DNA of 63,982 nt from a virus: positions 1 through 63,982 of the IMG/VR virus record IMGVR_UViG_3300027573_000001; one strand, given 5' to 3'. Each line of letters starts with the position of its first letter. Within the stretch, counting starts at the first letter, position 1. The notes below the pieces were generated by a model that saw only the letters and a list, made by a program, of their open reading frames with translations, had not been told where the DNA came from and searched no databases. This document shows positions 38,240 through 57,176 of this stretch, piece after piece. Made by a program: the position numbers and the translations under genes.

Positions 38240-38431
38240 ATGAATATAGAACCAAAGACTTTCATTTGTGACTCTTGTGGAGAAGAAAGCATAGCAGAGA
38301 GGTCAGAAGAAGAAGTCATACAGGAATATGAAAATAATTTTCAGAGGCCATTCAACAAAGAAGATGCCGCTGCAATTTGTGATGATTGCTACGATAAATT
38401 CATGTCTTGGTATAGACAACAATCTTCTTAA
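38240..38431 (+). CDS. Cys-rich small acidic protein
   Basis: CDSCGEE...CDDC; SD AGGA upstream. Confidence 0.5.
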   Translation: MNIEPKTFICDSCGEESIAERSEEEVIQEYENNFQRPFNKEDAAAICDDCYDKFMSWYRQQSS

Positions 38432-38565
38432 TAATATCTTTTATCTTAAAATTGCGAGTAGCACAGGGGCTGGGTCTGGGCTACGCCCGTAAACTACAGG
38501 TGTTTTGAATATTTAACTTGTACACAAATGGGCTGATCTAGGGGCGGCGCTTATATTCAGAGATA
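38427..38565 (+). repeat. Dispersed motif copy B, long form (core variant TAGCACAGGG 38459-38468; GGCGCTTATATTCAGAGATA tail)
   Basis: Aligns along its length with copy C. Confidence 0.85.
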
Positions 38566-38589
38566 CACGCAGGAAGGTAATAACTAAAA

Positions 38590-38742
38590 ATGGACGCTAA
38601 AGTAAAAGACTTTTTTAATTTTAAAGTAAATTGCCCTAGTAATGGCGCATTTCACTGTGAATGTTACTACGCAATTATGAGAGACGACGATGGCAAGCTA
38701 ATACATCGACAGTGCTGTTACTGCGACGCTGAGCCAGAATAG
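38590..38742 (+). CDS. Cys-rich 50-aa protein
   Basis: Manual translation MDAKVKDFFNFKVNCPSNGAFHCECYY...CCYCDAEPE. Confidence 0.4.
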   Translation: MDAKVKDFFNFKVNCPSNGAFHCECYYAIMRDDDGKLIHRQCCYCDAEPE

Positions 38743-38750
38743 GAGAGAAC

Positions 38751-38930
38751 ATGGATACGTTTAATGTGTATGATGGACTTAAAATAGTAAATAAGCATAG
38801 ATGGGAGAAAGACTGCATTAGGTGCGGGATGCATATGACTTTCACACAAACAATGTGTAGGCACTGTAAGGGACACTTTTGTAAGTGGTGCATGAGTATG
38901 CATCAGTACTTAGACCGAGCGCATGAATAA
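38751..38930 (+). CDS. Cys-rich 59-aa zinc-finger-like protein
   Basis: AGGAGAG SD; CIRCG...CRHCKGHFCKWC. Confidence 0.5.
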   Translation: MDTFNVYDGLKIVNKHRWEKDCIRCGMHMTFTQTMCRHCKGHFCKWCMSMHQYLDRAHE

Positions 38931-38951
38931 GCATAAGATATGGGTGAAGGA

Positions 38952-39206
38952 ATGAGCAATCAAGGCACCGCTAAAGTGCTAAAAACTATGGACGGCGATA
39001 TATTGTACCTACGATTAACGCCTCTTGATTCCGATATACCTACTGTATTCTTTGGGCATTCAATTATGTCAATAAGTCCAAGTGACCTTGACGACGATAC
39101 TGCACTCGCCGTTGTATCGTTCCTTACTGGAGAAAGTATAACAATGGAAAACTCATATAAAGAGGTCATGAGTGAACTAGGGATTCTTAAGTATTTTGAT
39201 ATATAA
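38952..39206 (+). CDS. Hypothetical protein, paralog of 39548..39814
   Basis: Shared DG.LY..RL....FFG.SI...SP..DD...SYK pattern; internal ATG with GAAGGA SD chosen. Confidence 0.55.
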   Translation: MSNQGTAKVLKTMDGDILYLRLTPLDSDIPTVFFGHSIMSISPSDLDDDTALAVVSFLTGESITMENSYKEVMSELGILKYFDI

Positions 39207-39315
39207 ATAAGTGCGAGTACACGTAACTGAACACACAGTTTTTGTAGTTCTCACTGTTTAAGTCGAAAGCTGTGGTAAGTAGAGAGTCTATAGACAGCTG
39301 AAAGATTTATAGTCC

Positions 39316-39451
39316 CTTAATAATATCTTTTATCTTATAATTGCCTTTGCACAGGGTCCGGGTGTAGGGCGTAGCCCGTAAATGGTAGGAATCGTAAAAC
39401 TTAACTTGTACATGAGGGTTTGACGCGGGGCCGCGCTTATATATCGAGATA
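39316..39451 (+). repeat. Dispersed motif copy C, long form (core TTGCACAGGG 39347-39356)
   Basis: Aligns with copy B. Confidence 0.85.
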
Positions 39452-39547
39452 GCGATTAGGGATTAATGAATATAGAACAGCACGGACATACGTATACTGA
39501 TAGCCTGCACGTGAACGGCGAGGGGCGAGTGAGGGCACAGAGGCGCA

Positions 39548-39814
39548 ATGGAATACATAAAGTACTTTAAAGATTATGATGGACACTTGTACTGTATTAG
39601 ATTGAAAGAGTACCATAGTGGAGTTAATAGGCTATTCTTTGGGCGTAGTATTACTGGATTCTCGCCTGCTAGTGATGATACAGCATTTGTTCACTTGATT
39701 GGAAGGGAAACAGTTAGAGTAAGCGAAAGCTATAAGGATATACTGCAACAGGTCGTGTTGCATAATTCCTCTTTAGAGATGGAGGAATTACAAGAATGGG
39801 CGAGGAGTACCTAA
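39548..39814 (+). CDS. Hypothetical protein, paralog of 38952..39206
   Basis: See paralog. Confidence 0.55.
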   Translation: MEYIKYFKDYDGHLYCIRLKEYHSGVNRLFFGRSITGFSPASDDTAFVHLIGRETVRVSESYKDILQQVVLHNSSLEMEELQEWARST

Positions 39815-41715: not shown

Positions 41716-41827
41716 GCACATAATAGATACTACTTACCAACCCATTGACCAAAATTAACTATACATATATCTATACATAAGTATAGATATACTAAAAGGG
41801 ATCGTAGGTAAGTGGTATCTATTATGT
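41716..41827. repeat. Long-range inverted repeat (22-nt arms, 21/22 match) enclosing the palindrome ATATCTATAC-ATAA-GTATAGATAT
   Basis: CACATAATAGATACTACTTACC (41716-41737) versus GGTAAGTGGTATCTATTATGTG (41806-41827). Confidence 0.8.
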
Positions 41828-41876
41828 GTAAATGTTATGAGGAAATGAGGGGTTATACACCCCTCATTCCACGCAC

Positions 41877-43547
41877 TCACTCCACGCTCATACTATCCAC
41901 ATACACTAGTTCTTCCTTAGCGCGTGTCACGCTAACATACTGTAAGTTCTTTTCCTGTACTAACTCCCATTCCTGCTTTGCCCACCTACTCGGCATGAGC
42001 CCACGATCCAAGACAAACACTCGCCGTGCTTCCAGCCCCTTACTCTTGTGCACACTAGCGCACACTACATACTTACCCTTGATACCATCCTCCCCTGCAC
42101 TCTTCGGAAACATGGTATCAATCGTGTCGTTTAGGTAAGTAATGTCCTGCTTACCGTCATCAATCAACGAATCACTAAGCAGCAACAGGCAATCAACCTT
42201 GTCTGCCACTGCCGCCGCCTTACCCTCCTGTTTCCGCTCAACACACCTACTTACTTCCGCCGCGCCCCACTCCCGCAACCTACTCTGAAACTCACTCAAT
42301 CCCTTACACTTACTCCCTGCAACCCGCCGAATAAGTGCCTTCAACCCTGCACCAATGTCCCGTCCCATCACCTTGACAGGTACCCTAGCCTTCAGGCACT
42401 TATACGCCACGCCTAGCAACGGTGCATTATTCCTGCACACCACTAGATCATCCTTACCCTCACTCCACCTCCAATCTTCCACACTCCATTCCGACACCCC
42501 TCGCACAATCCCTACACTTGCCCCTTCCCGTGCTTCAATATGCGGCACGTATTGTTGTGCCTCACGTACCACACTTGCCGCACACCTATACGAAATACTG
42601 AGCGGTAGCTCCACGCAACCAAACGTATCCCTTATGAGCGCCATGCTATCAGCATCGGCACCCCTAAAGCCATATATAGCTTGGTACTCGTCGCCTACTG
42701 CAATCAACCGTGCATTCCCTCGCGGACCGCTTTGCAGCAATCTTTGCAGTATGTCACGCTGCACGGCGTTAGTATCCTGGCTTTCGTCCACCATGACGTA
42801 CTGCCACGGACTTCCGTACTTATTGCCTACCCTTGCACCCAAGAGTGGCACAAAGTACAGCATATCGTCAAAATCAATCATACCCCCGCACCCAACAATA
42901 TCGTTATTCCGTGTCAGCACCGCCCGAGCGCACATAATCACGGCCTCATCACTAATAGAATCGTCATCCGATTCTATGTCGTAATGTGCCATCAAAGCGC
43001 GCAATTCCTCCGCCGACTGGTCGGGCATCATTACGTTAGCTTTCATGAGGCTAACAAGTTTCTTGACGGCACTCTTGGCCCCACTAAGCGCCTCATCCTT
43101 ACCGTACAACTCATCAAAGATACCGTCCACTTTATAGGCGTCGGTATCCTTTGGGCCAAACTTACGCCCCGTTCTACTCTCAATCACTGGCACAATCGCT
43201 GCACGACCTAGTGCATGGAACGTACTAGCTACTACGTTCGCGGGTAGTTTACGCTTTAGCTCTTCAGCGATGGCCTTATTGAACGCCAGGAATACGCCAC
43301 TCTTCCCACTCTTTGCCATCTCCCGCGCCAGCATGACTAGCGTACTAGTCTTACCACTACCAGCAACCGCCTGGATAATACCGTTACTCGTTTCCGTCTT
43401 GAACCAATCTAGAATCGCCTGCTGATATACGCTAGGCTTATGCTCAATCGGCGTACTAACCTCATTCCGAACGGCGGGCGCACCATACTGCCCATGTCCG
43501 CGCCCCGTACTACCGTACTTCTTAGGCTGCCACTTACCGTAAGCCAT
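41877..43547 (-). CDS. UvrD/Rep/PcrA-family SF1 helicase
   Basis: AVAGSGKTSTLV, VMVDESQDTN, GDEYQAIYGFRGA, SISYRC, VHKSKGLEARRVFV, YVSVTRAKEEL. Start set to MAYGKW (AGGAG SD); the ORF track starts at 43595. Confidence 0.9.
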   Translation of the reverse strand: MAYGKWQPKKYGSTGRGHGQYGAPAVRNEVSTPIEHKPSVYQQAILDWFKTETSNGIIQAVAGSGKTSTLVMLAREMAKSGKSGVFLAFNKAIAEELKRKLPANVVASTFHALGRAAIVPVIESRTGRKFGPKDTDAYKVDGIFDELYGKDEALSGAKSAVKKLVSLMKANVMMPDQSAEELRALMAHYDIESDDDSISDEAVIMCARAVLTRNNDIVGCGGMIDFDDMLYFVPLLGARVGNKYGSPWQYVMVDESQDTNAVQRDILQRLLQSGPRGNARLIAVGDEYQAIYGFRGADADSMALIRDTFGCVELPLSISYRCAASVVREAQQYVPHIEAREGASVGIVRGVSEWSVEDWRWSEGKDDLVVCRNNAPLLGVAYKCLKARVPVKVMGRDIGAGLKALIRRVAGSKCKGLSEFQSRLREWGAAEVSRCVERKQEGKAAAVADKVDCLLLLSDSLIDDGKQDITYLNDTIDTMFPKSAGEDGIKGKYVVCASVHKSKGLEARRVFVLDRGLMPSRWAKQEWELVQEKNLQYVSVTRAKEELVYVDSMSVE

Positions 43548-43604
43548 TACACACTCCTGGTCACGTTTGTTTCGTTCTGACAATGCTTCAAACATGCACG
43601 GTTC

Positions 43605-43650
43605 GACCGCTCGCGGCCACTCTGTACCCTGTGCAAAGAGCTAAAGATAC
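43605..43650 (-). repeat. Dispersed motif copy I (core CCCTGTGCAA 43627-43636 on plus)
   Basis: Reverse complement reads TATCTTTAGCTCTTTGCACAGGGTACAGAGTGGCCGCGAGCGG; upstream of the helicase gene. Confidence 0.8.
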
Positions 43651-43991
43651 AATCCGTGCACGCCTACCGCTCACACTTGCACGTACATGGTTTGCCATCA
43701 TCAGGCCGTAAGTGACCAACTTACGACGACAATACATGCGCCATTCGACGCATGTACTGTTTCGGCATTACTACTCCAATCCGAACTCGGAACGGTTGTA
43801 TACCATGACCGCTCTGATATGCCGCACAATCAACGCCGTAACGTTATCGTGCACTCTCTCACTATTCACGCGGGCCGACATCCAAGTGCAACGCAATCCT
43901 CCATGCATCACGTTGCTACTATAGATGTTACTTTGAACGTTCAATACACGGCAGATATCGTCCGCCGCCGTATCCTCCGAAACTGTCACGT

Positions 43992-44225
43992 CTAGTCGAT
44001 ATGCACAGAACATGACCAAATACCCCAATTCCATGGACTATCTGCACTAACGCGCTTGACGAAACTATTGTCAAGCGTATCCGAAACGATAATCGTATCG
44101 TTTCGGTACTTATACTCTAACAACCTGACGCACTGGTCGCGCATACCCTTTACCGAGTCGGTCCAGTAGACAATCTCATTGTCCACGTATGCACGAAACC
44201 TATCACCGCGAGCCTTACGTGCCAT
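43992..44225 (-). CDS. Hypothetical protein
   Basis: GAGGG/AGGA SD before MARKARGDRF. Confidence 0.5.
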   Translation of the reverse strand: MARKARGDRFRAYVDNEIVYWTDSVKGMRDQCVRLLEYKYRNDTIIVSDTLDNSFVKRVSADSPWNWGIWSCSVHID

Positions 44226-44333
44226 TCCTAATCCCTCAGCGACTAACGACCATCGCTGCAATAGCCAACGCGGCTACTGCGTCATACATCACGAATAACG
44301 CTAACGCAATCAAGCGCCGATCCTCAGCGTTCA

Positions 44334-44486
44334 CTACAATCTAACCTCGCCTCTATCGTCTACGTCCATTCCGAACGTAAACACCGCCAGCATCTCCGAA
44401 CAATCGGCGCAAACATCGGCGGCGTATGGCTGCATGCTTACAGTCATGTGACCGCAAATACTGCACGGCATCTCGTCGTCGAACAT
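44334..44486 (-). CDS. 50-aa zinc-ribbon protein (below ORF-track cutoff)
   Basis: Manual translation MFDDEMPCSICGH...CADCSEML. Confidence 0.35.
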   Translation of the reverse strand: MFDDEMPCSICGHMTVSMQPYAADVCADCSEMLAVFTFGMDVDDRGEVRL

Positions 44487-44493
44487 ATCCCCA

Positions 44494-44709
44494 TCATGCG
44501 CGCGCATACGTCACCCCTTCCTGTACTTCCTCCACGGTGTACATTCGACGCATACCACAATATCGAATCAACTCGTTAGCTGATTCGATACTGATATCTG
44601 CCACTGAACCGTCACTAGTCACCACAACGGCGTGCGTGCTAAACGCTGGAATAGTGATGCTACTCCAAACATCACTATCTGTCAGGTGCCGTACAACGTA
44701 TTCCCTCAT
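44494..44709 (-). CDS. Hypothetical protein
   Basis: GGAG SD upstream. Confidence 0.55.
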   Translation of the reverse strand: MREYVVRHLTDSDVWSSITIPAFSTHAVVVTSDGSVADISIESANELIRYCGMRRMYTVEEVQEGVTYARA

Positions 44710-44714
44710 GGTCG

Positions 44715-45068
44715 TTACTCCAACGTCTCGAAGTACTTATAGATACGATCCATGACCGTATCGTCTAGGGTAGTGCCATAATCGGCGATGCAATCAATAC
44801 CGTTACCCAACACGACAAAAAACCATGATTTTCTGTCGCCATTGCTAACGCTAACGGTAGACTCATCAACGGAAAAGATAACGTCTAGCGTTTCCTTTTC
44901 CGTCAATACTTGATACCGTTCTTCCCCATCGTGTACGTGTGTCACGATCCAGCCAGCGTACTTTAGCTGACGGATCGCGTACCGAATGCACTTCTTTTCA
45001 AGTGCAATCCGATCATGGGCTATGTTGCACGGTTGCCTACACGTTGTACTGCACTTACCCTGCACCAT
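44715..45068 (-). CDS. Hypothetical protein
   Basis: GAGGG SD upstream. Confidence 0.55.
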   Translation of the reverse strand: MVQGKCSTTCRQPCNIAHDRIALEKKCIRYAIRQLKYAGWIVTHVHDGEERYQVLTEKETLDVIFSVDESTVSVSNGDRKSWFFVVLGNGIDCIADYGTTLDDTVMDRIYKYFETLE

Positions 45069-45159
45069 CGCTATACCCTCACAATCGCGTTTCCTGGCTC
45101 GTACAGGCCGCTATGGCCCACTAGCGTACTTTCGTACCCTAGTGGGCTATGGCGGACCG

Positions 45160-45300
45160 TCAAGCCTTACCGTATCGCTTTGCGATCCACTGATAGAACG
45201 CTACGTAAACGTTTATGTCACTAGGGTCTGTAGCGTAAAGCAAAGCGATTGCCATAAAGACAATCGCGGGCAGAACCAAGTAACCCAACACAACTTCCAT
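45160..45300 (-). CDS. Small single-TM protein
   Basis: AGGAG SD before MEVVLGYLVLPAIVFMAIALLY. Confidence 0.45.
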   Translation of the reverse strand: MEVVLGYLVLPAIVFMAIALLYATDPSDINVYVAFYQWIAKRYGKA

Positions 45301-45663
45301 GATCGTCACTCCTGGTCGGCATACGTGCCGCACTAACCCACTAGCTTTCACTAGTGGGCTAGGTCAGACGTAGTACCATAGCGTGCCGCTCATAACGGCC
45401 ACGCATAAGAGAGTAAAGAGCTAATGAGACGTATTGCTGACTATGTACGCTACCGTCACTTACCCGATTCATCCCTACGTAACTGCCTACACTGTCACCA
45501 ATTCGAGGCGTTCACTTCCGCCGTACCGATGGCCGCTAGCAGTGTTCCGAGTCTACTGTCGTTCGTTCTGTGAACGTAGGGTGTAAGGCTAGACGCCCGC
45601 GCTGCACGGATGTTTTACGCTCGCCCCCTGGTGGGGCTTGCAACCGTGTCACCAGTTTTATGC

Positions 45664-45775
45664 GTTGAGAGTGGAGATTACTCCGCCGTTCTTACTAGTG
45701 GCGTTTCCGTCCTACCAGACCGTTGTACGCTAACGGACCAACGTGTGTCGGTAGACTACTGTCGCCACTCTCAAC
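45664..45775. other. 112-nt closed multi-hairpin element (candidate structured RNA) in the GC-rich non-coding stretch
   Basis: 11-bp perfect closing pair GTTGAGAGTGG (45664-45674) / CCACTCTCAAC (45765-45775) with internal CCGTT..AACGG and CGCC..GGCG hairpins. Confidence 0.35.
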
Positions 45776-46202
45776 TTGTAAATGTGCCCGCCCGTGCTTC
45801 AAGTCACAGTATGCTCCTTTCCTGGTCGGCCTACAATAGATATGTGCGCCCAAAAGCCTCATAACGAGCGCACTATGTATCCTATAATTCAAGTATGCTC
45901 ATAACCCTACGCTTTGTGCAGTCGAACGGCGAGCTAATGATACAGCGTATCAATAAACACTACATGACAATACTGTCAGGCAAATACACTTTACATCGTG
46001 TCATTTTGGCTATTTAGGGATATCGTTTATCTCAATTAGGGTAGTGTCTCCGCATGGTTTGACACGTATTGTCGCTGTACGGGCCTACAAACGCCATTTT
46101 CAGGGTGTACAATTTGAGCTAAACAAGTTTAGTACACTAGATCGGAGTTTTGAGCTAAAATGTAAAGAAATAACTAATAAAACGTTTTACCTCGAATAAC
46201 TA

Positions 46203-46214
46203 GAACATTTGTTC
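46203..46214. promoter_or_regulatory. GAAC-N4-GTTC box (Gram-positive-type LexA/Cheo-box-like), arms extend to TAGAAC/GTTCTA
   Basis: GAACATTTGTTC read directly. Confidence 0.5.
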
Positions 46215-46232
46215 TACGGCGACCGATAGCTA

Positions 46233-46279
46233 GGGATATTTACTCTACAGTAGTTTTATTCTAAGGGTATTTACTATAC
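46233..46279 (+). repeat. Iteron pair GGGATATTTACTCTAC / GGGTATTTACTATAC
   Basis: Read directly; same motif at 46515, 46561, 50074 and 50114. Confidence 0.8.
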
Positions 46280-46324
46280 GCTAGTTTTATTATTCCTTTA
46301 CATTAGCAAATATGTATCACGGAA

Positions 46325-46375
46325 TCTCGGCTGCGCGAGCTACCCTGTGCAAATCGCAAACTTGCGATATGAGAT
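46325..46375 (-). repeat. Dispersed motif copy G (core CCCTGTGCAA 46343-46352) abutting the palindrome ATCGCAAACTTGCGAT (46353-46368)
   Basis: Read directly. Confidence 0.75.
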
Positions 46376-46514
46376 CGCAATAATGCTAATTTTGAGATAA
46401 AACGTTTTATGCCGAAATTTGAGATAAAACCTTTTTGTAGAACATATGTGCTCCGCGGCAAGTGTAGCAAATTTGCACTCTCATATCTAACTTTTAGACT
46501 AGAACATATGTTTG

Positions 46515-46600
46515 GGGATATTTACTATACGTTAGTTTTATTATTTTACTAAAATGCTGGGGGATATTTACTATACGTTAGTTTTATTATTTTACTAAAA
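46515..46600 (+). repeat. 46-bp tandem duplication carrying iterons GGGATATTTACTATAC (46515-46530, 46561-46576)
   Basis: GGGGATATTTACTATACGTTAGTTTTATTATTTTACTAAAAT occurs twice. Confidence 0.9.
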
Positions 46601-46646
46601 TTGTCGAGTTTGCCGATCTAATAACTAGACAATTCCTCCCGCGGTA

Positions 46647-46658
46647 GAACAAATGTTC
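46647..46658. promoter_or_regulatory. GAAC-N4-GTTC box (LexA-like)
   Basis: GAACAAATGTTC read directly. Imperfect copies at 46440-46451 and 46502-46513. Confidence 0.5.
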
Positions 46659-46814
46659 TGTTAGTATGGGCTAACAAAAAAGGCTAGCACATGCTAAGGC
46701 TTATCCTTAGTACGTACTAACCTTTTTCATTAGCCTATACTTTCATCTCAAATTAGCTTATGCTCATACACGCCGTTAGCGTAGGCTAACCTATTTTTTA
46801 GGGTCCAACTCAAA

Positions 46815-46935
46815 AAAGGTACGATGGGTAAAATTCAGTCGAAATATTTTAAACTAGAAATTCAAAATTTGTAAAACCAAATTGAAATTCAAAATGGGTT
46901 TACAAATTGGAATTATTAACATTTTGGAATTCTGA
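46815..46935 (+). repeat. AT-rich block, paralog of 50688-50800
   Basis: Shared AAAAAGGTACGATGGGTAAA.TTC....GAAATATTTTAAACT.GAAA...AAAATG..TTTACAAATTG.AA. Confidence 0.8.
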
Positions 46936-46942
46936 TTTATAT

Positions 46943-47446
46943 TTATTCTTCCAAGTTTTTGACTGGTTCTAGTTTGCAAACATATCGAATATTGTTTGGT
47001 AAACTTAGAATAAAGGAGTGTGCGAGGTATTCACAATTAATCTTCTTCATTCCTATATCATACGGATCGAATGGTGGACACTCTCCCTTTGCATGAACTA
47101 TACAGGAATCGTAGTTACCATATATACTAACTCCTTCCAATGCTCGGTCATCAAAGCGTTGCCTGCTTTTCCGTACACTATCCATAATGGCACGTACTAG
47201 AGTACCCTGCCGTGGTATGCCACTGTTAGGTACGCCGAATGTACGTTGAGTATCAATATACTCATTTACTGCATTAGTAATCAGGATAGCTTCTTTTTCT
47301 TCTAATACAGTAGTTACTAGTACACCCTCCGCATTAAAGATACCATATTCCTTTTCTTCATGCAGATCATATGTATCTAACTTGTACGTCCAGTGTCGGT
47401 CAACGGCTTGTAACTTCTGACGGTTAGCGTTACTTTTACTTGCCAC
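46943..47446 (-). CDS. Hypothetical protein
   Basis: GTG start with GGAG SD. Confidence 0.55.
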   Translation of the reverse strand: MASKSNANRQKLQAVDRHWTYKLDTYDLHEEKEYGIFNAEGVLVTTVLEEKEAILITNAVNEYIDTQRTFGVPNSGIPRQGTLVRAIMDSVRKSRQRFDDRALEGVSIYGNYDSCIVHAKGECPPFDPYDIGMKKINCEYLAHSFILSLPNNIRYVCKLEPVKNLEE

Positions 47447-47448
47447 TA

Positions 47449-47775
47449 TTACTCTCCGATTCTACACGCTTTGCACAGTAGGTCGCTTGCTATATTCAGT
47501 CGCTTTAGATCGGCATACTCGTCATTCCTTCCACAGTAAGCACAGCCGTTTTCCTTGTCTTGCACTCGCTGTAAGTGCTTACAAATATCAGGGTTAGCAC
47601 TACTCTTCTTTACTGCCCAGGGACAGGTACAGTACCATACACCATTCTTAGCTAATAGCACACTATAGCTACTACCCTTAGCTACATTGTATACTCGGTA
47701 TTCTGTCTCGCTTACCTTGTGCGCCTGTAGCCTTTCAGCTACAGCGCGCACACGGTTTAGCTTACTATCTGCCAT
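47449..47775 (-). CDS. SWIM-type zinc-finger protein
   Basis: YCTCPWAVKKSSANPDICKHL (CxC..CxH). Confidence 0.6.
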   Translation of the reverse strand: MADSKLNRVRAVAERLQAHKVSETEYRVYNVAKGSSYSVLLAKNGVWYCTCPWAVKKSSANPDICKHLQRVQDKENGCAYCGRNDEYADLKRLNIASDLLCKACRIGE

Positions 47776-47953
47776 TCTTCCTTACCTCATTGTAGCATGT
47801 AAAGTGATAATAGTTTGCACTAATCTGCATCATTACAATAGTTTGTACTTCTACTGCATGTGTGCCGACAGGGTTTTGGCAGTAATCACAATATGTACGC
47901 ATGAATTTATGTGGTAGAGCTACACCGCGAGTCTTAGTGTACATTATCTCCAC
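47765..47953 (-). CDS. Hypothetical small Cys/His-containing protein
   Basis: ORF track; overlaps the next gene's start. Confidence 0.45.
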   Translation of the reverse strand: MEIMYTKTRGVALPHKFMRTYCDYCQNPVGTHAVEVQTIVMMQISANYYHFTCYNEVRKNGR

Positions 47954-48037
47954 TCTAGTTTAGTGTAGGGTATTGGTCACTAGGAGTACCGCTGCTTTAT
48001 GTGCTGTATCCTTACGGTATACAGTATCCTACATTGG

Positions 48038-48271
48038 TTAGCTAACTACTTCTAGCTTATTTATCGCGCTATCAATCGCTCGCAATACTACATCATAGCT
48101 ACGCTCGATCTTGGCACGCTTAGTGATATCCTTTTCCTTTTGGCTAGTTAGCTTCTTTTCTGCTCCCTTGATACGCTTTTGATTATCTAGTGCTCCGAGA
48201 ATCGCAAGCCGTTCATACTCCGTTAGCATGTACTGTGTAACGCTTGATTTTATCTTAGTCCTGGTAGCCAC
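48038..48271 (-). CDS. Hypothetical helical protein
   Basis: ORF track. Confidence 0.5.
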   Translation of the reverse strand: MATRTKIKSSVTQYMLTEYERLAILGALDNQKRIKGAEKKLTSQKEKDITKRAKIERSYDVVLRAIDSAINKLEVVS

Positions 48272-48494
48272 TGTATGATACCTCCTGTACTCTTACTGTA
48301 CCATATATGCCGTTTGCTGTCTGTTCCCTAGAGCACACTTGATCGAACTTACGAATATTCTTCCTATGGCCTAGATAAATATATCCGTGGTACCTACCTT
48401 TACACTGACACTGACATACATCGTTAGTAGCATACTGACATCGACCATCGCACAGCGGATATTGTTTGATATACTTAACCTGAGACTGTGCCAC
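48255..48494 (-). CDS. Cys-rich hypothetical protein
   Basis: TAGGAGG SD; CDGRCQY...CQCQCKGRYH. Confidence 0.55.
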   Translation of the reverse strand: MAQSQVKYIKQYPLCDGRCQYATNDVCQCQCKGRYHGYIYLGHRKNIRKFDQVCSREQTANGIYGTVRVQEVSYSGYQD

Positions 48495-48628
48495 CGAATA
48501 ACCTCCTAGTCTCTATACTAGATTTAGTTCGGTAGGCAAGCTAGGCGGTGAACCTAGTACACACTCTCTCTTGCCTTATGGCAGCTAACGTAAACTCTAC
48601 CTTATGCGCGTTAGCCTTTACTGTAGAG

Positions 48629-48856
48629 TTAGCCCATCTTAGTACGTTTCTTAGCATAACTCTCCGCACACTTCCAAGAGCAAAGATGTCTAGGCTGGTT
48701 TGTATCGTGGTACACTACTAGTCCACTAATTAACACTCCTTCCTCATTAAATGTAATGTAGTTACTGCACGGTCGTCTAGTTCGTGCATTATTCTCACAA
48801 AATGTCTGCTTTGTACCGTTAGATCGTGGAAGATACATACTTAGGTTATGCTTCAT
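48629..48856 (-). CDS. Hypothetical protein
   Basis: GAGGA SD. Confidence 0.5.
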   Translation of the reverse strand: MKHNLSMYLPRSNGTKQTFCENNARTRRPCSNYITFNEEGVLISGLVVYHDTNQPRHLCSWKCAESYAKKRTKMG

Positions 48857-49312
48857 TTTATCCTCAGATAAATTAGACGCCTCATGTACCAGTAGCTAGC
48901 ATACTAGTACAATCCATTTACTACATACTCGTCGCGTCCTAGTTTCGCGAGATATATGTGGCGTCCCATTGTTATGTCTTTTGTGCCATGAGTGTATGGT
49001 TTCCCTAAGATATATGTTTATTTGTGTCCAGTAGTAGGCTAACGGTTCTATAAATCGCCCGACTCATCTACTACTGTATAAGCCTTACGGCTAAGGTTTA
49101 CCTAATGCGTTGACACGCATTGTCTATCCTCCTGTTACGGAATACGGTACCCTGCATCGGTCATGAACCGTCGGCATCTTATGCGTGCAGGGTTACTATT
49201 GATAGCTAGTAGCGTTAGCACTGCGTTAGCAGGCTTAATAGCCTTGTGTATGTACTAAGTAGCATAGCTATAGTTAGCAGTGATTAGCTTAGTTAGCCTT
49301 GTGTGTTGATTA

Positions 49313-49350
49313 GTGAGAGTGTAGACTGCCGTTGCTTCCTACACTCTCAC
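49313..49350. other. 12-bp perfect hairpin (GTGAGAGTGTAG..CTACACTCTCAC) about 40 nt past the RHH gene stop
   Basis: Read directly; no clear U-tract, so terminator status is uncertain. Confidence 0.4.
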
Positions 49351-49391
49351 TATAGCACGTTTTACGCGCTGTGTCTGTTCTCTAGGTTACA

Positions 49392-49820
49392 TTACTCGTC
49401 GTCGTCATCCTCATCATCGACCAGGGATGCAAGGTCGATGTTACCCTCATTGTAAGCCTTAAGAAGAGACTTAATCAACTCGTTACGCTTCTTGCTAGCG
49501 GCCTTTTGTGCGGCCTGCCGTTCCTCGTCAGTGGCGTATTTCTTAGCACGCTGACGGATAACATTAGGCAACTCAACATCGAACGTATCTGCAAGCGTCT
49601 CGCGGACGAAACGCGCAAGGGTCATATTCTCGCCACTCTTAGCTGCCTCATCGAGAAGCTTAATCTTCAACTCAACAGGCATCGTCACCATAACACTAAC
49701 GCGCGTTCCTGGTGCCAACTCGGTAAGCGCCGCTCGTTCGTCCTTATCCTTTTCGTCGTCGTCGTTATCGGCGCCGTTTGCGTTCTGTGTCTGTTCGACA
49801 TCCTTAGCACTGGTAGCCAT
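49392..49820 (-). CDS. Ribbon-helix-helix protein with acidic tails
   Basis: VSVMVTMPVELKIKLLDEAAKSGENMTLARFVRETLA. Start set to MATSAKD (AGGA SD) because the ORF-track start overlaps the promoter. Confidence 0.6.
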   Translation of the reverse strand: MATSAKDVEQTQNANGADNDDDEKDKDERAALTELAPGTRVSVMVTMPVELKIKLLDEAAKSGENMTLARFVRETLADTFDVELPNVIRQRAKKYATDEERQAAQKAASKKRNELIKSLLKAYNEGNIDLASLVDDEDDDDE

Positions 49821-49877
49821 CGTTCCTATTCCTTGTGACCGCGCTTCTGTGAGCGCCGCGCCATTCCTTACACTCTT

Positions 49878-49906
49878 AATGTACCACACCCTATAGGCTG
49901 TGTCAA
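49878..49906 (-). promoter_or_regulatory. Sigma70-type promoter TTGACA-17-TACATT
   Basis: Reverse complement of 49878-49906 reads TTGACAcagcctatagggtgtggTACATT. Confidence 0.55.
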
Positions 49907-50073
49907 TAGGTTTTCAGCGGATTTCGGACCAATTTTAGAAACTCGTTTGATCGTAGTATGATCCGTCTGGAACTAGAACAAGTGTTTCACTTGACAAGCC
50001 CATTATGAGTATGGTATTCGCGCGCACGCGCGCAGCTAACTAGAATAGCAGGAGAGTCCGAACGGCGGTTGGA

Positions 50074-50151
50074 GGGATATTTACTGTACAAGAGTCAAAT
50101 ACCTGGCCTACTGGGGATATTTACTATACATGAGTCAAATACCCTCCTACG
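50074..50151 (+). repeat. Iteron pair GGGATATTTACT(G/A)TACA.GAGTCAAATACC, 40-bp period; each unit is an imperfect palindrome
   Basis: Read directly. Confidence 0.8.
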
Positions 50152-50687
50152 CTCTTGTTAGCCTACGCTAACTACTTGCATTAGTACGTGCTTATAGCTT
50201 GCATTAGCATACTCGCATGGGTTGCATTAGCCCGTGTGTTTCTGGTATAGTGTCATTAATGTAGTAGTGCAACGCTTTGATTGAATACATAACAGATATG
50301 CTAATGAATACGTACCGCTATAGTCTTGATAATACATACAAGGATTACAAGTGTAGTACACTCGCATATTGCAAGTGTAGTACGCTTGACGGTGCGTCGC
50401 GATTAGTATTAGCTAACGCTACATACAATAATTACATGCGCTACAGGGTAGTACGCTCTCACTAGCGGAGTGATGGTGTACTGCCTAATTTTATTTGTTC
50501 GGGTGTACTAATGTAGTTAGTTTGTATGAATTAGTATAGTTAGTATGTACTCACTAAAGCACTAAGCATGGGAGGTTAGCATGGGCTAAGGTAATGGGTT
50601 AGCCCATGCTCAGGTCCAGGGTGAGCATAGGCTCATTCGATCGGCGAGGGGATGCTAAGGTGTTTTGAATTCTAAGTACAACGTAAA

Positions 50688-50800
50688 AAGAGTACGATGG
50701 GTAAATTCCAACTGAAATATTTTAAACTGAAAATGTAAAATTGTGAAAATGAAAACAAAAACCAAAATGCATTTACAAATTGAAAATGTTAACAAAACGG
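50688..50800 (+). repeat. AT-rich block, paralog of 46815-46935
   Basis: See 46815-46935. Confidence 0.8.
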
Positions 50801-50804
50801 ATTT

Positions 50805-50850
50805 GCCGCTACGCGCTACAACTACCCTGTGCAACGGCGAACAAATGTTC
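50805..50850 (-). repeat. Dispersed motif copy H (core CCCTGTGCAA 50825-50834; CGCTACGCG 50807-50815) fused to the LexA-like box CGAACAAATGTTCT (50838-50849 core)
   Basis: Read directly. Confidence 0.75.
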
Positions 50851-50875
50851 TTATTCTCCAAAAAATAATACATAC

Positions 50876-50904
50876 TTGTTTTTTTCATATAAGTATGGTA
50901 CTAT
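50876..50904 (+). promoter_or_regulatory. Sigma70-type promoter TTGTTT-17-TACTAT (TGg extension)
   Basis: Read directly; AGGAG SD and ATG 50927 follow. Confidence 0.55.
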
Positions 50905-50926
50905 GATATAGACAGGAGATCGCGAG

Positions 50927-51169
50927 ATGCCCACTGTAAAGATAGTAAAAAACAAATCAATTACAGATATATTAACTGACCAGGATATCTCAGCGTTGGA
51001 AGTAAATGTCCTAGTAGCACTAAAGAAAGGCGGTAGCGAACTACAAGTAATAGACCTGATTGATAGCGTGCGTAAGCACAATGCAATGTCATATAAGTTT
51101 GTAGACGACCGTCGTTTTTATCATGCAATAGCTAGACTAGTTAAGCGTAAGTATCTAACGTATGGGTGA
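50927..51169 (+). CDS. Winged-helix-like DNA-binding protein (putative)
   Basis: LEVNVLVALKKGGSELQVIDLIDSV...YHAIARLVKRKYLTY pattern. Confidence 0.5.
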   Translation: MPTVKIVKNKSITDILTDQDISALEVNVLVALKKGGSELQVIDLIDSVRKHNAMSYKFVDDRRFYHAIARLVKRKYLTYG

Positions 51170-52444: not shown

Positions 52445-53791
52445 ATGGTACTAGCTGCTGAACCATTACAAGAAACTACCAATGAGTTACTTACTTTACG
52501 TGAGTATCAACGTATAGGTCGGGACTTCTTAATAGATAAGAAGCGTGCATTCTTAACTGACTGGCCGGGTTTGGGTAAGACACTACAAGCGGCTGAGGCT
52601 ACTGTAGAATTCCCTGCTATAGTTAGTGCGCCTGCTTACTTAACTGAACAATGGTATAATTTCCTTGTTAAGCAGTATCCTAACAAGCGTGTGATTATGG
52701 CTACTGGTGCTACTATGCATCGTTTTGAGCGCCAGAAGATGTTAAATAAGCGTGCCGATTGGTATGTAGTAAACCACCAAATGTTCCGTGGTTGGTTTAC
52801 TATACCAGAATGTAAGACGGTTATATTTGATGAATGCCATCATCTACGCAATCGAACCGCGTTACAGTCTAAGGGAGCAGCAAAGTACGCGGCTAATATG
52901 GATAGACGGGTTTATATGTTATCAGCAACTCCCATGTGGAAAGATACTGATGACATTTGGATGCAGCTTCATATTGTCCAACCGCAAATCTTTACTTCTT
53001 ACAGAGATTTCGTGGACTATTTCATGCTTGTTGATGAAACAGCCTATGGACCCAAAGTACTTGGATTAAAGCGTCAAACTAAAAAAGAACTAGAAGCTAT
53101 GCTTTCAGTTCTAATGCTAGGTCGTTCATATAAGGATGTAGGACGGCAGTTACCTGATACAATTGAAACAGAAATTATTGTAGACTTTCCTAAACCTATA
53201 CAAGAGAAGTATGACGAACTACGAAAGAAGTACCGAGTACAATTCAATGAGGATGAAACGCTCATACTTTCTAGTTACTTGCAGGTACTGCGGTTACTAC
53301 GCTTGTTCACAAACTTTAAGGATAAACAAGAAGCAGCCCTTTCGCGCATTGAAGATGTTGATAAGCCAACATTGGTATTTACATGGTACATTGATACCGC
53401 AGAAGATATCTCAAAACTGATAGCGCAACGGTTCGGTAAGGATAATGTGTACTGTTTAACAGGTCATATTGATCCACAAGAGCGCCATAAGTTAGCACAC
53501 GAAGCACAAAGGAAAGGTAAGCATATTGTAGCTACTCTAAGCTCGCTTGGTGAAGGAATTAATCTGTATCAATATCGACACGTTCTCTTCTATGAAGAAG
53601 ATTGGCCTCCTGGACGAAACTACCAGGGATTGAGTAGAGTTGTACGTGACCGTAATGATGACGGACACAATACTGAACCTGTATTAGTATCATACGTCCA
53701 TGTCAACCGTAGTGTAGATGTCGCTATTCATAAGTCTAGTAAGAAGCGATCGTCTAACATCAAACAAGTTATGCAGGACATATTACTATAA
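52445..53791 (+). CDS. SNF2-family (SF2) helicase/translocase
   Basis: DWPGLGKTLQA, DECHHLRN, LSATP, GEGINL, QGLSRVVR. Confidence 0.85.
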   Translation: MVLAAEPLQETTNELLTLREYQRIGRDFLIDKKRAFLTDWPGLGKTLQAAEATVEFPAIVSAPAYLTEQWYNFLVKQYPNKRVIMATGATMHRFERQKMLNKRADWYVVNHQMFRGWFTIPECKTVIFDECHHLRNRTALQSKGAAKYAANMDRRVYMLSATPMWKDTDDIWMQLHIVQPQIFTSYRDFVDYFMLVDETAYGPKVLGLKRQTKKELEAMLSVLMLGRSYKDVGRQLPDTIETEIIVDFPKPIQEKYDELRKKYRVQFNEDETLILSSYLQVLRLLRLFTNFKDKQEAALSRIEDVDKPTLVFTWYIDTAEDISKLIAQRFGKDNVYCLTGHIDPQERHKLAHEAQRKGKHIVATLSSLGEGINLYQYRHVLFYEEDWPPGRNYQGLSRVVRDRNDDGHNTEPVLVSYVHVNRSVDVAIHKSSKKRSSNIKQVMQDILL

Positions 53792-53795
53792 AGGA

Positions 53796-54767
53796 ATGAG
53801 TATGAGAGATTTGTCAGGCTATCAAGCTAAGATTGTCTGTGATACTACAAATGGTGTAGGTACTCGTGTAACTACATTTGAGCTACAAATGCCTAAGTGG
53901 CTTGTAGCCGAATTGAATACGCATCGTAGTGCGCCCGAGGTTACTCGTCATCTTGCCCGTAATAGTGCTAGTAGCAGAGCAGTACCTACATCACGTATCA
54001 TTGCTGCTGTTACAACCAACCCTGTATACCCTACAGGATGGGAACTACAAGAAGATTTTATAGACGGACTGATTAATAATCCTGTTGTACCTACTGATTG
54101 GCGTGAGAACACAGGAGGTATGCAACAGGATACTATTCTTAGTGACTCAACTATAGCTACGCTTGACTACCTCTGGTTGCGTGCTAGAGATAGTATGATA
54201 AACTACGCTAGGCGTATGCTTGAACTAAAGGCTGATAAGCAGCGTGTGAATCGAATGCTTGAACCGTGGATGTGGACTAAAGTAGTAATTACTAGTACGG
54301 AGTGGGATGCATTCTTTGAACTAAGGAATCATCCCGCTGCACAACCTGAGTTTGGACACATTGCTCACTTAATGCATACAGAGTATAGTTCAAATGAGCC
54401 TAAATTAGCATACTGGCACATGCCATATTTACTTAATGATGATGATTTACAAGATGAGCATATAAACTACTTAAGAGGACTAAAGTTAGCAGGACACGAG
54501 CTTGTTAATCTTAACACTCCAGTCTTTGCTTATTTGCTTATTAGTGCTGCTAGGTGTGGGAGGGTTACATACTATCGTCAAGGAGAGACTAAAGACTTAC
54601 TAGATGATATACAGCGTGGACTCAGCTTTGCTAATAATAAGCATTGGTCACCTTTAGAGCACTGTGGTAGATTAATGAACGATAACAAGTGGTACGGGCC
54701 ATTCTTCGAGTTTAAATCACTACGTAAATATTTCCTTAATGAGTCTGGAAAAGGACGCCGACGGTGA
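53796..54767 (+). CDS. thyX: ThyX-like flavin-dependent thymidylate synthase (divergent motif)
   Basis: ELNTHRS..TRHLARNSASSRAV in place of RHRxxSxxxxSxR; WDAFFELRNHPAAQPEFGHIAHLM. Start moved to the ATG after the AAAGGA SD. Confidence 0.7.
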   Translation: MSMRDLSGYQAKIVCDTTNGVGTRVTTFELQMPKWLVAELNTHRSAPEVTRHLARNSASSRAVPTSRIIAAVTTNPVYPTGWELQEDFIDGLINNPVVPTDWRENTGGMQQDTILSDSTIATLDYLWLRARDSMINYARRMLELKADKQRVNRMLEPWMWTKVVITSTEWDAFFELRNHPAAQPEFGHIAHLMHTEYSSNEPKLAYWHMPYLLNDDDLQDEHINYLRGLKLAGHELVNLNTPVFAYLLISAARCGRVTYYRQGETKDLLDDIQRGLSFANNKHWSPLEHCGRLMNDNKWYGPFFEFKSLRKYFLNESGKGRRR

Positions 54768-55542: not shown

Positions 55543-56589
55543 ATGATTACATCTATTAGCGACATTCAGACGTATTTACGCTGTCGCAGACAGTGGGATT
55601 ACCAGTCTTCAAATAGGCGCAACCTTACTCGCGGCGGTATGAAAGCACCTGAGTTAGAACTAGGCACACTTATCCACGCTGCGTTAGCTGATTGGACACT
55701 TAGACCAGACATTGATCCCGTAAAGCTATTCATGCAGCATAGCGCAAAGCGTCTAAACGAAATTCAGAAGCAGTATCTAGAACTAGTAGGTACAAGTATT
55801 AGTGACGATGAACTATCATCATTCTATGCCTCAATAGATCTAGGCAAGGATATGATAGCTAACTACAAAGAACACTGGAAGACTCCACTACCTAATAACT
55901 TTGAATATGCATTCCCTGAACAAGAGGTTATAGTAGATATTCCTGGCACTGAACATAGATGTAAGTCATGCTTTGATTCAGCATATAAGAATGAAAGCAT
56001 AACAGTTATTTACTCAAATGATGCAGAAATTAAATTCTCTGCTAATAGTGATTGTCCTAAGTGTCATGGTACTGGTGTAGAAAAGCATCAAATCCGTGCT
56101 ATTCTTGATGGCTTGCTAAAGAGTAAGCGTGGTACGTATGTTGTGCTAGAGCGTAAGACATTTGATCCACGCTATGCCCCTACTGAGGAAAGTTTACAGA
56201 CTAACTTTCAGTTTGTAGGGTATACATGGATCGTGCGTGAGTTAGGTATGACACCTGTAGCTGGTGTAGCCTATGATGGACTACGTAAGCAAAAGGCACC
56301 AGGAAAGACAGGTAAAGCAACACGATTGGAAGACTTGTTTATCCGTACAATGGTGCAGTTTACAACTGAGCAACTTGATTTATGGGCAGTAGACCTAGCG
56401 GCTATTGTTAATGAAATGGCTAACAATCCTGTGATTTATCCTCATAGGCCGTGGGATGGATGTCGTCGTTGTTCATTCGATAGCCTGTGCCAGTCACAAT
56501 CACGCGGCGAAGACTTTGAGCACTTGATTCAACTTAACTACGTACAGCGGCCAAACACACGCCCTATTCTTACGGTGGTAAATAACTAA
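55543..56589 (+). CDS. PD-(D/E)XK nuclease, Cas4/RecB-like with C-terminal Cys cluster
   Basis: ISDIQTYLRCRRQW at the N-terminus; ILDGLL..VVLERKT; CRRCSFDSLC at the C-terminus. Confidence 0.7.
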   Translation: MITSISDIQTYLRCRRQWDYQSSNRRNLTRGGMKAPELELGTLIHAALADWTLRPDIDPVKLFMQHSAKRLNEIQKQYLELVGTSISDDELSSFYASIDLGKDMIANYKEHWKTPLPNNFEYAFPEQEVIVDIPGTEHRCKSCFDSAYKNESITVIYSNDAEIKFSANSDCPKCHGTGVEKHQIRAILDGLLKSKRGTYVVLERKTFDPRYAPTEESLQTNFQFVGYTWIVRELGMTPVAGVAYDGLRKQKAPGKTGKATRLEDLFIRTMVQFTTEQLDLWAVDLAAIVNEMANNPVIYPHRPWDGCRRCSFDSLCQSQSRGEDFEHLIQLNYVQRPNTRPILTVVNN

Positions 56590-57176
56590 TGCCTGTTCTG
56601 AGTGATTTTGATTTACTACAACTTGGTGGAAGATTAACTGAACCTTTCATACCTACTAATGTACAGCCTAATAGTATTGATGTGCATTTAGGACAATCGG
56701 TTAAGTACTCAAACATCCCTGTCGATTATGTGTATGATATGCGAAAGGCACATCTTGACGGGATTGATTACACAGAACATGATCTAACTAAAAGTGACTT
56801 AATAATTCCATCAAGACGATTTTGTTTAGGGGTAACTCTAGAAACTATTAAAGTACCACAAGTTTATTATAATTATGCTGGAATCTTCTCTCTTACTGCG
56901 AAGATTGAAGGTAGGTCAGGAGTAGGTAGGACAGGTCTTTGTGTTGTCAATGCAGGTAGAGTAGACACAGGATGGGAAGGTAAGCTAACATTAGAACTAT
57001 ACAACTCGGAGCAGTTTCCTATTGTGTTATTCTATGGTATGCCGATCGCACAAGTAGTATATGAGACTACAGTATCTCCAGTAGGCATACCCTATGGTGC
57101 ACCAGCATTGCACAGTAAGTATCAAGGTGATACTAAAGCTGAACCATCAAAGATGTGGAAGAATTATGCTGATTGA
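56589..57176 (+). CDS. dcd: dCTP deaminase / dUTPase-superfamily protein
   Basis: NSIDVHLG; GRSGVGRTGL..NAGRVDTGWEGKLTLELYN; MPIAQVVY. Confidence 0.8.
   Translation: MPVLSDFDLLQLGGRLTEPFIPTNVQPNSIDVHLGQSVKYSNIPVDYVYDMRKAHLDGIDYTEHDLTKSDLIIPSRRFCLGVTLETIKVPQVYYNYAGIFSLTAKIEGRSGVGRTGLCVVNAGRVDTGWEGKLTLELYNSEQFPIVLFYGMPIAQVVYETTVSPVGIPYGAPALHSKYQGDTKAEPSKMWKNYAD

Follow-up and report, generated by a model that had tools for sequence, protein, structure and literature searches.

The stretch of DNA analysed here, referred to as the window, is the whole of IMG/VR virus record IMGVR_UViG_3300027573_000001 (63,982 nt), and the elements in question are two non-coding regions, region 1 (45352-46942) and region 2 (49890-50926), which lie 3.9 kb apart in the same direct orientation and bracket a module of small minus-strand genes (46943-49820), as an earlier reading made from the letters alone (the sequence-only reading) had proposed. 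Since the first 127 nt of the window are identical to the last 127 nt by sequence comparison, the assembly is circular and represents a complete genome of 63,855 bp; the identical genome was assembled separately from an ENA sample and from a JGI soil sample, with different start points. The soil metagenomes given as its source are JGI 3300009678 and ENA ERZ27267619. The genome is that of a tailed phage of an uncultured lineage. A structural block, from TerL (34512-35849) through the tape-measure gene, lies on the minus strand; a replication and nucleotide-metabolism block, coding for an SNF2 helicase, a ThyX-like protein, a PD-(D/E)XK exonuclease, a dCTP deaminase, Sak4, SSB and PolA, runs on the plus strand from 50927 across the junction to about position 5900; a second early block occupies the minus strand from 41877 to 49820; and three tRNAs are present.

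No DNA-level match to the two regions was found among GenBank phages by megablast or blastn, PolA is less than 28% identical to that of every cultured phage, and a search of IMG/VR returned no relative with the SNF2 protein and only distant matches with the UvrD protein. A metagenome contig, L029, spans both regions at 75-87% DNA identity, and three more relatives (L031, L032 and L034) were found through homologues of a putative ribbon-helix-helix (RHH) protein encoded at 49392-49820 (56-88% identity; 56-93% for the relatives overall). The gene plan common to the relatives consists of an 80-aa winged-helix gene, region 2, the RHH gene, small genes, genes for proteins of 108 and 167 aa, and region 1. 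The non-coding elements that the sequence-only reading had listed are conserved across five related metagenomic phages, and the features kept include the iterons, the palindrome arrays, the AT blocks and an arrangement of a GAAC box, 4 nt, the motif TTGCACAGGG and a mini-hairpin with a GNA triloop and compensatory stem changes. The DNA pattern formed by the box plus TTGCACAGG had no match in IMG/VR or in 185,579 reference genomes.

Every element that the sequence-only reading listed for the two regions is present, at the position given or at most 1 nt away from it, including the palindromes found in region 1 only. Its claim that the regions hold no convincing open reading frame (ORF) also stands: two independent gene callers find nothing real, and no ORF is conserved in either region. 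Only one ORF is retained in L029, the close relative; its substitutions are not biased to third positions, and in a more distant relative it is interrupted. The ORFs at 50655-50888, 50277-50465, 46303-46470 and 46044-46199 were rejected as genes because their proteins are not conserved. The description of the regions as paralogous holds for one part only. When region 1 was aligned with region 2, an AT-rich block was the sole long homology (46803-46921 against 50676-50794; 119 nt, 76% identity, 85 bits, with 37 bits for the best of 174 control segments), confirming the similarity that had been seen by eye, whereas the remaining shared items are short motifs in colinear order. The blocks are:

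46803-46921 (+): AT block of region 1, 74% A+T, 60% purine on the plus strand, opening with A6-GGTACGATGGGTAA
50676-50794 (+): AT block of region 2, 75% A+T, 65% purine on the plus strand

The AT blocks were rejected both as promoters and as curved DNA; the minus-strand promoters predicted in them are unconserved in L032, L034 and L031, and their A-runs recur every 6-7 bp, not every 10-11 bp.

The tracts rich in TTAGC and GCTAA, noted earlier as such, resolve into a 14-bp palindrome, TTAGY-N4-RCTAA (fuller consensus GTTAGTACGTACTAAC), present in 16 copies that form three arrays with a strict 23-bp phase:

46661-46789: region 1 array, six palindromes at 46661, 46684, 46707, 46730, 46753 and 46776, with a 23-bp period
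50158-50240: left array of region 2, four palindromes at 50158, 50181, 50204 and 50227, the last within the spacer of promoter P_y (see below)
50517-50658: right array of region 2, palindromes at 50517 and 50540, a register shift, then 50576, 50599, 50622 and 50645 at 23 bp

Perfect copies number six in the genome and all fall within the two regions. The array ends 14 nt from the AT block in region 1 and, for the right array, 18 nt from it in region 2. The 23-bp period is strict in every relative, and the copy number in region 1 varies from six in the window to 13-14 in L029. Half-sites are conserved and centres are variable, a pattern that suggests binding of a dimeric protein to the DNA and not the formation of a hairpin in RNA. 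A role as a TerS pac site was rejected, because the arrays lie 10-14 kb from the terminase genes and because DSL-LC05, the closest cultured phage of an unrelated array-bearing lineage (group A, see below), has the terminase and lacks the approximately 0.9-kb array module. A literature search for the palindrome as a string returned primers only.

The arrays are not confined to this lineage. Two sites at 23 bp were found in 65 IMG/VR contigs, 31 of which carry chains of three to seven sites, and the arrayed phages fall into about five lineages. Nearly all of the chain contigs (29 of 31) belong to group A (GC 50-56%); the other chains are in L053, a distant relative of the phage studied here, and in L071, L095 and L099. 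In group A the arrays lie in a divergent non-coding region of about 0.9 kb upstream of putative terS and terL genes, accompanied by an A/T run, another type of repeat and DnaA boxes, whose enrichment within 500 bp is 15-fold; at 5936-6862 of L087, for example, one of the group A phages of about 38 kb (also L036 and L074), we observed the DnaA boxes TGTGGATAA and TTGTCCACA, repeats of ATGTTGGCTA and a 30-bp A/T run. No neighbouring protein common to the array-bearing lineages was found with phmmer, which argues for a conserved trans-acting factor that is not encoded by the phages themselves.

We then surveyed 185,579 reference genomes with the two-site pattern, the ORFs downstream being filtered by hand to drop junk ORFs. 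At least 120 bacterial loci carry the pattern, mostly as simple pairs in promoter regions. Among 38 downstream ORFs, Pfam identified FeoA (five), the iron permease FTR1 (three), DtxR-family repressors (Fe_dep_repress/Fe_dep_repr_C; three), DUF3793 (three), ABC transporters (three), Nramp (one) and ZnuA (one), a set whose composition is that of the regulon of a metal-dependent repressor of the DtxR/IdeR/MntR type. The DtxR consensus, TTAGGTTAGCCTAACCTAA, is a 19-bp box made of two overlapping TTAGN-N4-NCTAA 14-mers, and two dimers bind per operator (PMC7762939); the half-site register of TTAGY-N4-RCTAA is that of each of these 14-mers, with differences at positions 5 and 10. At mneP of Bacillus subtilis, four MntR dimers bind cooperatively to four phased sites, one of which overlaps a -35 element (PMC11882963). 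From the form of the motif and its Fe/Mn regulon neighbours, we infer that the phage palindromes are phased DtxR/IdeR/MntR-type operators; no DtxR-family protein was found in the phage in the Pfam screens (see below), and the binder is therefore taken to be encoded by the host.

The second class of sites that appears to be of a host type is the GAAC-N4-GTTC box. The genome has three perfect copies (46203, 46647 and 50839) and three with one mismatch and the same A..T centre (46440, 46502 and 49976), all within the two regions, for which the sequence-only reading had listed such boxes; the shared form, GAACAWWTGTTC, is present in each region. Besides the box at 46502, which is listed below with the iterons, they are:

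46203-46214: perfect LexA-type box GAACATTTGTTC in region 1, which pairs with the box at 46647 as an inverted repeat of 20 nt; the segment is deleted in L029
46440-46451: LexA-type box GAACATATGTGC with one mismatch; perfect (GAACATATGTTC) in L029
46647-46658: perfect LexA-type box GAACAAATGTTC, with the palindrome array 2 nt away
49976-49987: LexA-type box ending 3 nt 5' of the -35 element of P_x, kept in four of five relatives
50839-50850: perfect LexA-type box, located upstream of both TTGCACAGGG (by 4 nt) and the -35 element of P_R (by 25 nt)

In region 1 the immediate neighbours of the boxes are iterons or arrays, with no promoter recognisable beside them. For LexA of B. subtilis the consensus is CGAAC-N4-GTTCG (PMC4551915), and the boxes fit the GAAC-N4-GTTC core of this Gram-positive consensus. 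By this likeness the boxes may be bound by host LexA.

Region 2 also contains four conserved sigma-A-like promoters that share a TRTG-N-TANNNT extended -10 element, and a candidate non-coding RNA (ncRNA) gene. The two divergent promoters predicted earlier, here P_L1 and P_R, are conserved in five relatives:

49878-49906 (-): P_L1, TTGACA-17-TGTGgTACATT, serving the putative RHH gene
49991-50020 (+): P_x, candidate rightward promoter, -35 TTGACA at 49991-49996 and TATGgTATTCG; TTGACA and TATGGTA are found in five of five relatives
50014-50034: alternating purine-pyrimidine GC tract CGCGCGCACGCGCGCA, conserved in five of five relatives
50222-50251 (+): P_y, -35 TTGCAT and extended -10 TGgTATAGT; core identical in L029, L032 and L034, variant in L031
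50258-50500 (+): candidate ncRNA of about 240 nt, with an intrinsic terminator hairpin (50446-50486, 41 nt) and a U-rich tail
50876-50904 (+): P_R, TTGTTT-17-TATGgTACTAT, promoter of the rightward early/replication operon, about 100% conserved in L029

A conserved 5' segment follows P_y, and the candidate ncRNA folds as a unit with a z score of -4.3. The terminator stem differs in sequence in each relative yet stays paired, with nine pairs showing double (compensatory) changes, and the ORF that overlaps the unit has substitutions at codon positions one, two and three of 7, 10 and 14 and stop codons in L032. Conservation of P_y, the covarying terminator and the non-coding pattern of substitution thus mark 50258-50500 as a candidate for a previously unseen small ncRNA gene. 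Rfam gave only tRNAs at the gathering threshold and no family for the candidate; sub-threshold MIR774 matches were discarded as artefacts of the palindromes. Known ncRNAs or small expressed ORFs had been named as what might explain the regions away, and this promoter-to-terminator unit does so in part, for region 2. The last palindrome of the left array overlaps the -35 element and spacer of P_y, and lies in the P_y spacer in all relatives. Sixteen nucleotides of CGCGCGCACGCGCGCA alternate perfectly at the predicted start of P_x, in a genome of 40% GC, and the tract is possibly a Z-DNA-forming, cruciform or supercoil-sensitive element. Leftward promoters of the P_L1 design, GACA-17-TG(G/C)TAYAKT(A/G)AGAGT, occur at 48295-48323 (-) and 49349-49377 (-), so that the small-gene module has three near-identical promoters.

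The iterons are the lineage-specific component. All six copies of GGGATATTTACTRTAC noted earlier are there (46233, 46264, 46515, 46561, 50074 and 50114), one starting at 46264 and not at 46265. With up to three mismatches, the 16-mer occurs nine times in the genome, against 1.9 expected (0 of 100 shuffles reached nine), and the six good copies are confined to the two regions, each of which has one or two pairs of a 30-bp repeat:

46233-46293 (+): left iteron pair of region 1, units at 46233 and 46264, spaced 31 bp
46502-46601 (+): half-degenerate LexA-type box (46502-46513) abutting a 46-bp tandem duplication that carries the iterons at 46515 and 46561
50074-50143 (+): iteron pair of region 2, 30-bp units at 50074 and 50114

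The 46-bp tandem duplication (46514-46601), also seen earlier, has copies that are 100% identical, and the junction of box and iteron is kept in L029 and L031. What had been called 40-bp palindromic units prove to be a 30-bp unit, only weakly palindromic, that is repeated directly at 50074 and 50114. The relatives carry the variant GGGATATACACTGTAY, whereas the TTTACT version is found in all six copies of the window, which are uniformly ATATTTACTATAC, where the relatives have ATATACACTGTAY; the opening motif of the AT block is likewise altered in both regions of the window. Such a concerted change suggests that a binding factor has co-evolved with the sites or that gene conversion has taken place between the regions. 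Despite the difference in the iterons, the window and L029 share 93% identity in their RHH and winged-helix proteins, which thus do not obviously track the iteron variant. The iterons were rejected as promoters (inconsistent hexamer spacing, unconserved in relatives).

Each region also has one minus-strand copy of TTGCACAGGG, at 46343 and 50825, as the sequence-only reading had it. The genome contains eight exact copies, at 1294(-), 5435(+), 20254(+), 39347(+), 43627(-), 46343(-), 50825(-) and 60984(+), and two with one mismatch, at 19527(-) and 38459(+); ten copies with at most one mismatch compare with three expected, and 0 of 100 shuffles reached that number. The copies within the regions are arranged as follows:

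46320-46368 (-): TTGCACAGGG at 46343-46352, immediately preceded on that strand by the 16-bp palindrome ATCGCAAACTTGCGAT (46353-46368) and followed by a GC mini-hairpin whose triloop is GCA; conserved in L029
50805-50850 (-): TTGCACAGGG at 50825-50834, with a mini-hairpin of the GCGTAGC type downstream and a LexA-type box upstream; kept in L029, L032, L034 and L031 with compensatory hairpin stems

After every copy, at a distance of 5-10 nt, comes a GC mini-hairpin whose triloop is of the GNA type (GCGAAGC, GCGTAGC and similar), and in six of eight TATCTTA lies 6-9 nt upstream. Six of eight point toward the next gene and two are antisense; three share a 45-nt upstream sequence. The element occurs only in this phage lineage and might serve as a promoter specific to the phage or as a nut-like element of 5' leaders; a promoter of the sigma-54 or sigma-A type seems less likely (no GG at -24, no usable -10).

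The leftmost part of region 1 lies outside the arrays:

45352-46200: left part of region 1; its GC-rich stretch, 45352-45960, is partly deleted in L029
45585-45660 and 45960-46110: non-coding blocks about 95% conserved, followed by TTGAGMTAAAAC repeats and AAAACGTTTT palindromes

A hairpin, CCCACTAG-N6-CTAGTGGG, lies at 45338-45368, upstream of an ORF for a small membrane protein (start at 45302); in L029 its arms are CCTACTAG/CTAGTAGG, a compensatory double change. Two mutually exclusive hairpins are possible at 45620-45665, one with a T-run after it. GC content is 49-52% over 41800-46000, a stretch that takes in the gene for the UvrD-like helicase, small genes on the minus strand and the left end of region 1, as compared with about 40% elsewhere, and this jump suggests a horizontally acquired module.

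The encoded proteins were screened against Pfam (105 ORFs at E <= 1e-3 and 51 small ORFs at E <= 0.05), and 25 families are listed of the 32 found. None of the families listed is an HTH, an S24 peptidase/repressor, an integrase, ParA/ParB, Rep or a ParA-, ParM- or TubZ-type NTPase, which agrees, within this scope, with the absence of an integrase and a CI-type repressor claimed before; the small-ORF screen gave weak zinc-finger matches only. The 49392-49820 product has a beta-alpha-alpha secondary structure in a low-confidence model with a predicted local distance difference test (pLDDT) score of 60, hence its designation as a putative RHH protein, and a fold search with this model was not significant and uninformative. 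The 80-aa protein (50927-51169) is modelled as a winged helix (pLDDT 79) whose best, non-significant fold matches are the DNA-binding domains of Fur/PerR/Mur; that it is DtxR-like was rejected, as it has no profile similarity to the DtxR N-terminal domain. PDB sequence searches with the RHH, winged-helix and 422-aa proteins gave no match. Matches of the phage proteins are spread over many phyla, and the TRTG-type extended -10 promoters together with strong Shine-Dalgarno sites hint at a Gram-positive host.

Elsewhere in the genome, two MazG/MazZ-like pyrophosphatases (one matching a dATP/dGTP diphosphohydrolase), the ThyX-like protein and a dCTP deaminase/dUTPase are encoded (1536-1976, 5481-5921, 53718-54767 and 56589-57176), and a UDG-family match, whose ORF is not placed, is also present; as a set these suggest a modified-base DNA pathway. 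A 1058-aa ORF (27163-30339, minus strand), in the head module between the portal and protease genes, has no Pfam or PHROG match. Few convincing ORFs occur also at 61600-63982 and 37800-39800, stretches without the motifs of regions 1 and 2 except for TTGCACAGGG at 39347 and the one-mismatch copy at 38459.

Our tentative reading, which we regard as close to an even call, is that the two regions are composites serving early control, in which docking sites for host-type global regulators make up the larger part. Host LexA would occupy the GAAC boxes and a metal-activated dimer of the host DtxR/IdeR/MntR family the palindromes, with dimers on neighbouring 23-bp-phased sites binding cooperatively, as MntR does at mneP. 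Through such occupancy the small RNA and the early promoters on either side would respond to DNA damage and to the Fe/Mn status of the host, and the start of replication might do so as well; the amplifying phage genome, with at least 16 sites per copy, could titrate the host regulator, and the duplicated layout, 3.9 kb apart, would allow two protein-coated regions to pair. An extension of this proposal, which we consider unlikely, is that the arrays act as sponges upon genome amplification, stripping the host of its Fe/Mn repressor and LexA and so turning on metal uptake and the SOS response to the benefit of the phage, while occupancy gates a CI-less early switch and the small RNA. Several observations weigh against docking by host regulators. 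Matches of the phage proteins scatter over many phyla and point to no host with a LexA or DtxR-family protein of these specificities, and the link to DtxR rests on the composition of regulons in other genomes. Where the DtxR consensus reads G (position 5) and C (position 10), the motif here reads Y and R; the arrays are phased at 23 bp and the MntR array at 19 bp, only 8 of 120 bacterial pairs strictly bracket a -35/-10, and most members of the phage arrays overlap no recognisable promoter. Regulation alone leaves unexplained both the adjacency of the AT block in the two regions and the co-occurrence of DnaA boxes in group A. Moreover, an orphan phage protein, such as the 80-aa winged-helix or the putative RHH protein, could bind the sites instead.

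The sequence-only reading took iterons plus an AT-rich block for a theta-type origin. That one or both regions are origins of the lambda/SPP1 type, the palindromes being sites for initiator dimers and the A-rich block the unwinding element, is the main rival reading, and we rate it as rather unlikely; the second copy would be a second origin or an auxiliary site like crr of P4, and transcription starting at P_x or P_y might serve to activate initiation, or to prime it, for the family-A DNA polymerase. Arrays of four to six dyad repeats with a strict 23-bp period lie in both regions beside an AT-rich block whose purine asymmetry between strands is moderate (60-65%), and for this there are precedents: the lambda iterons are inverted repeats that bind dimers beside a strand-asymmetric AT region, and the lambda origin needs transcriptional activation (PMC5043065), while SPP1 has two origins of a shared repeats-plus-AT design (PMC6316719). 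Region 2, moreover, lies between divergent early operons, beside the replication genes and at the minimum of cumulative GC skew, although the skew is confounded with the direction of transcription, and the 29 group A loci in IMG/VR combine arrays with the enriched DnaA boxes, A/T run and second repeat described above. However, the AT blocks are not minima of duplex stability in the genome (that of region 1 ranks fourth and that of region 2 is outside the top ten), the two regions contain no DnaA boxes, clustered or otherwise, and neither Pfam nor PHROGs, which cover recognisable families only, revealed a Rep, O-like, DnaD, DnaB, helicase-loader, primase or AAA+ initiator family, so that the 'primase-helicase' of the sequence-only reading could not be confirmed. 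Moreover, a palindrome common to bacterial metal-regulon promoters and unrelated phages is unexpected for replicon-specific iterons and for the site of a phage-specific initiator. The regulatory and origin readings are not mutually exclusive.

Of the three options offered by the sequence-only reading (two origins, plasmid-prophage maintenance and a switch not built around CI/Cro), a CI/Cro-independent genetic switch comes closest to what was found. One form of it would use small orphan DNA-binding proteins, such as the putative RHH protein, the 80-aa winged-helix protein or zinc-ribbon proteins, on the iterons, palindromes or GAAC boxes, which would draw the two regions together in a loop and so control the module between them. 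Each of the two divergent operons begins with one of these candidates, the RHH-like or the winged-helix gene, their models (beta-alpha-alpha and winged helix) are of types compatible with such a role, and the concerted change of iterons and AT-block motif would fit co-evolution with a phage factor as well as it fits gene conversion. The presence of two operator clusters with a few kb between them also recalls OL and OR of lambda. Against this, the two proteins hardly differ from those of L029 where the iterons do, neither has homology to any repressor family, their fold searches are not significant, and the recurrence of the palindrome in unrelated phages and bacterial metal regulons is left unexplained; we consider an entirely phage-encoded switch improbable. 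Far less probable still is a plasmid-prophage maintenance system in which the arrays are centromere-like partition sites for the RHH protein and LexA keeps an episomal prophage quiescent. Centromeres are repeat arrays of variable copy number, and RHH centromere-binding proteins exist; the arrays do vary in copy number, a possible RHH protein is present, no integrase is among the families listed and GIL01 offers a precedent for LexA control (PMC4551915, PMC11511902). Nevertheless, the screens detected no partition NTPase and no plasmid Rep, the gene content (its own PolA, nucleotide-metabolism genes and three tRNAs) is like that of a virulent phage, and none of the reference genomes carries the box plus TTGCACAGG.

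Docking by host regulators, as proposed here, can be set beside four known systems. Like the lambda origin and oriL/oriR of SPP1, the regions have regularly spaced repeats beside an AT-rich, strand-asymmetric segment, with the duplicated design of SPP1 and a nearby promoter as in lambda; unlike them, they have no recognisable initiator gene (lambda O, SPP1 gp38), their repeats lack replicon specificity, the AT block does not mark a stability minimum and the copies, 3.9 kb apart, are both in non-coding DNA. The case also cautions that regions of repeats plus AT-rich DNA are not always origins. As with OL and OR, two clusters of phased palindromes a few kb apart flank a regulatory module, and a centre spacing of 23-24 bp permits cooperative dimers, but there is no CI/Cro pair and the sites are many more and mostly off promoters. 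The closest parallel for the GAAC boxes is phage GIL01, which has GAAC-N4-GTTC boxes at early promoters and likewise no CI-type repressor or integrase (PMC4551915, PMC6182141), and which sets the precedent of a LexA-controlled, non-integrating phage without a CI repressor (PMC4551915, PMC11511902). GIL01, a linear tectivirus of 15 kb, carries one or two boxes, which lie downstream of its P1 start, and has gp7 and gp6 as known co-factors, whereas the present phage is a 64-kb tailed phage with six boxes in two regions, those beside promoter elements lying upstream of them, and a gp7/gp6 homologue was not identified. With DtxR/IdeR/MntR operators the arrays share the TTAG...CTAA palindromic half-sites and, with MntR arrays, a layout that several dimers can bind cooperatively (PMC11882963). 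They differ in having four to six sites per array (13-14 in a relative), the 23-bp phase in place of 19 bp, Y/R instead of G/C at positions 5 and 10, and a placement as three arrays in non-coding hubs with most sites away from promoters. The classical case of a host metal repressor controlling a phage-borne gene is DtxR at the tox gene of corynephages, and the textbook examples in general (DtxR at tox, Fur at stx, LexA in GIL01) are single host-repressor boxes on phage genomes. The uncultured lineage described here yields a motif of 14 bp phased at 23 bp, a promoter family and a candidate for a small RNA; if our reading is correct, several lineages of phages have arrays of host-type metal-regulator boxes, joined in the present one, which lacks a repressor of its own, by LexA boxes, and such phased arrays of 4-14 host-repressor boxes would be, next to those single boxes, a new means by which a phage reads or rewires host physiology.

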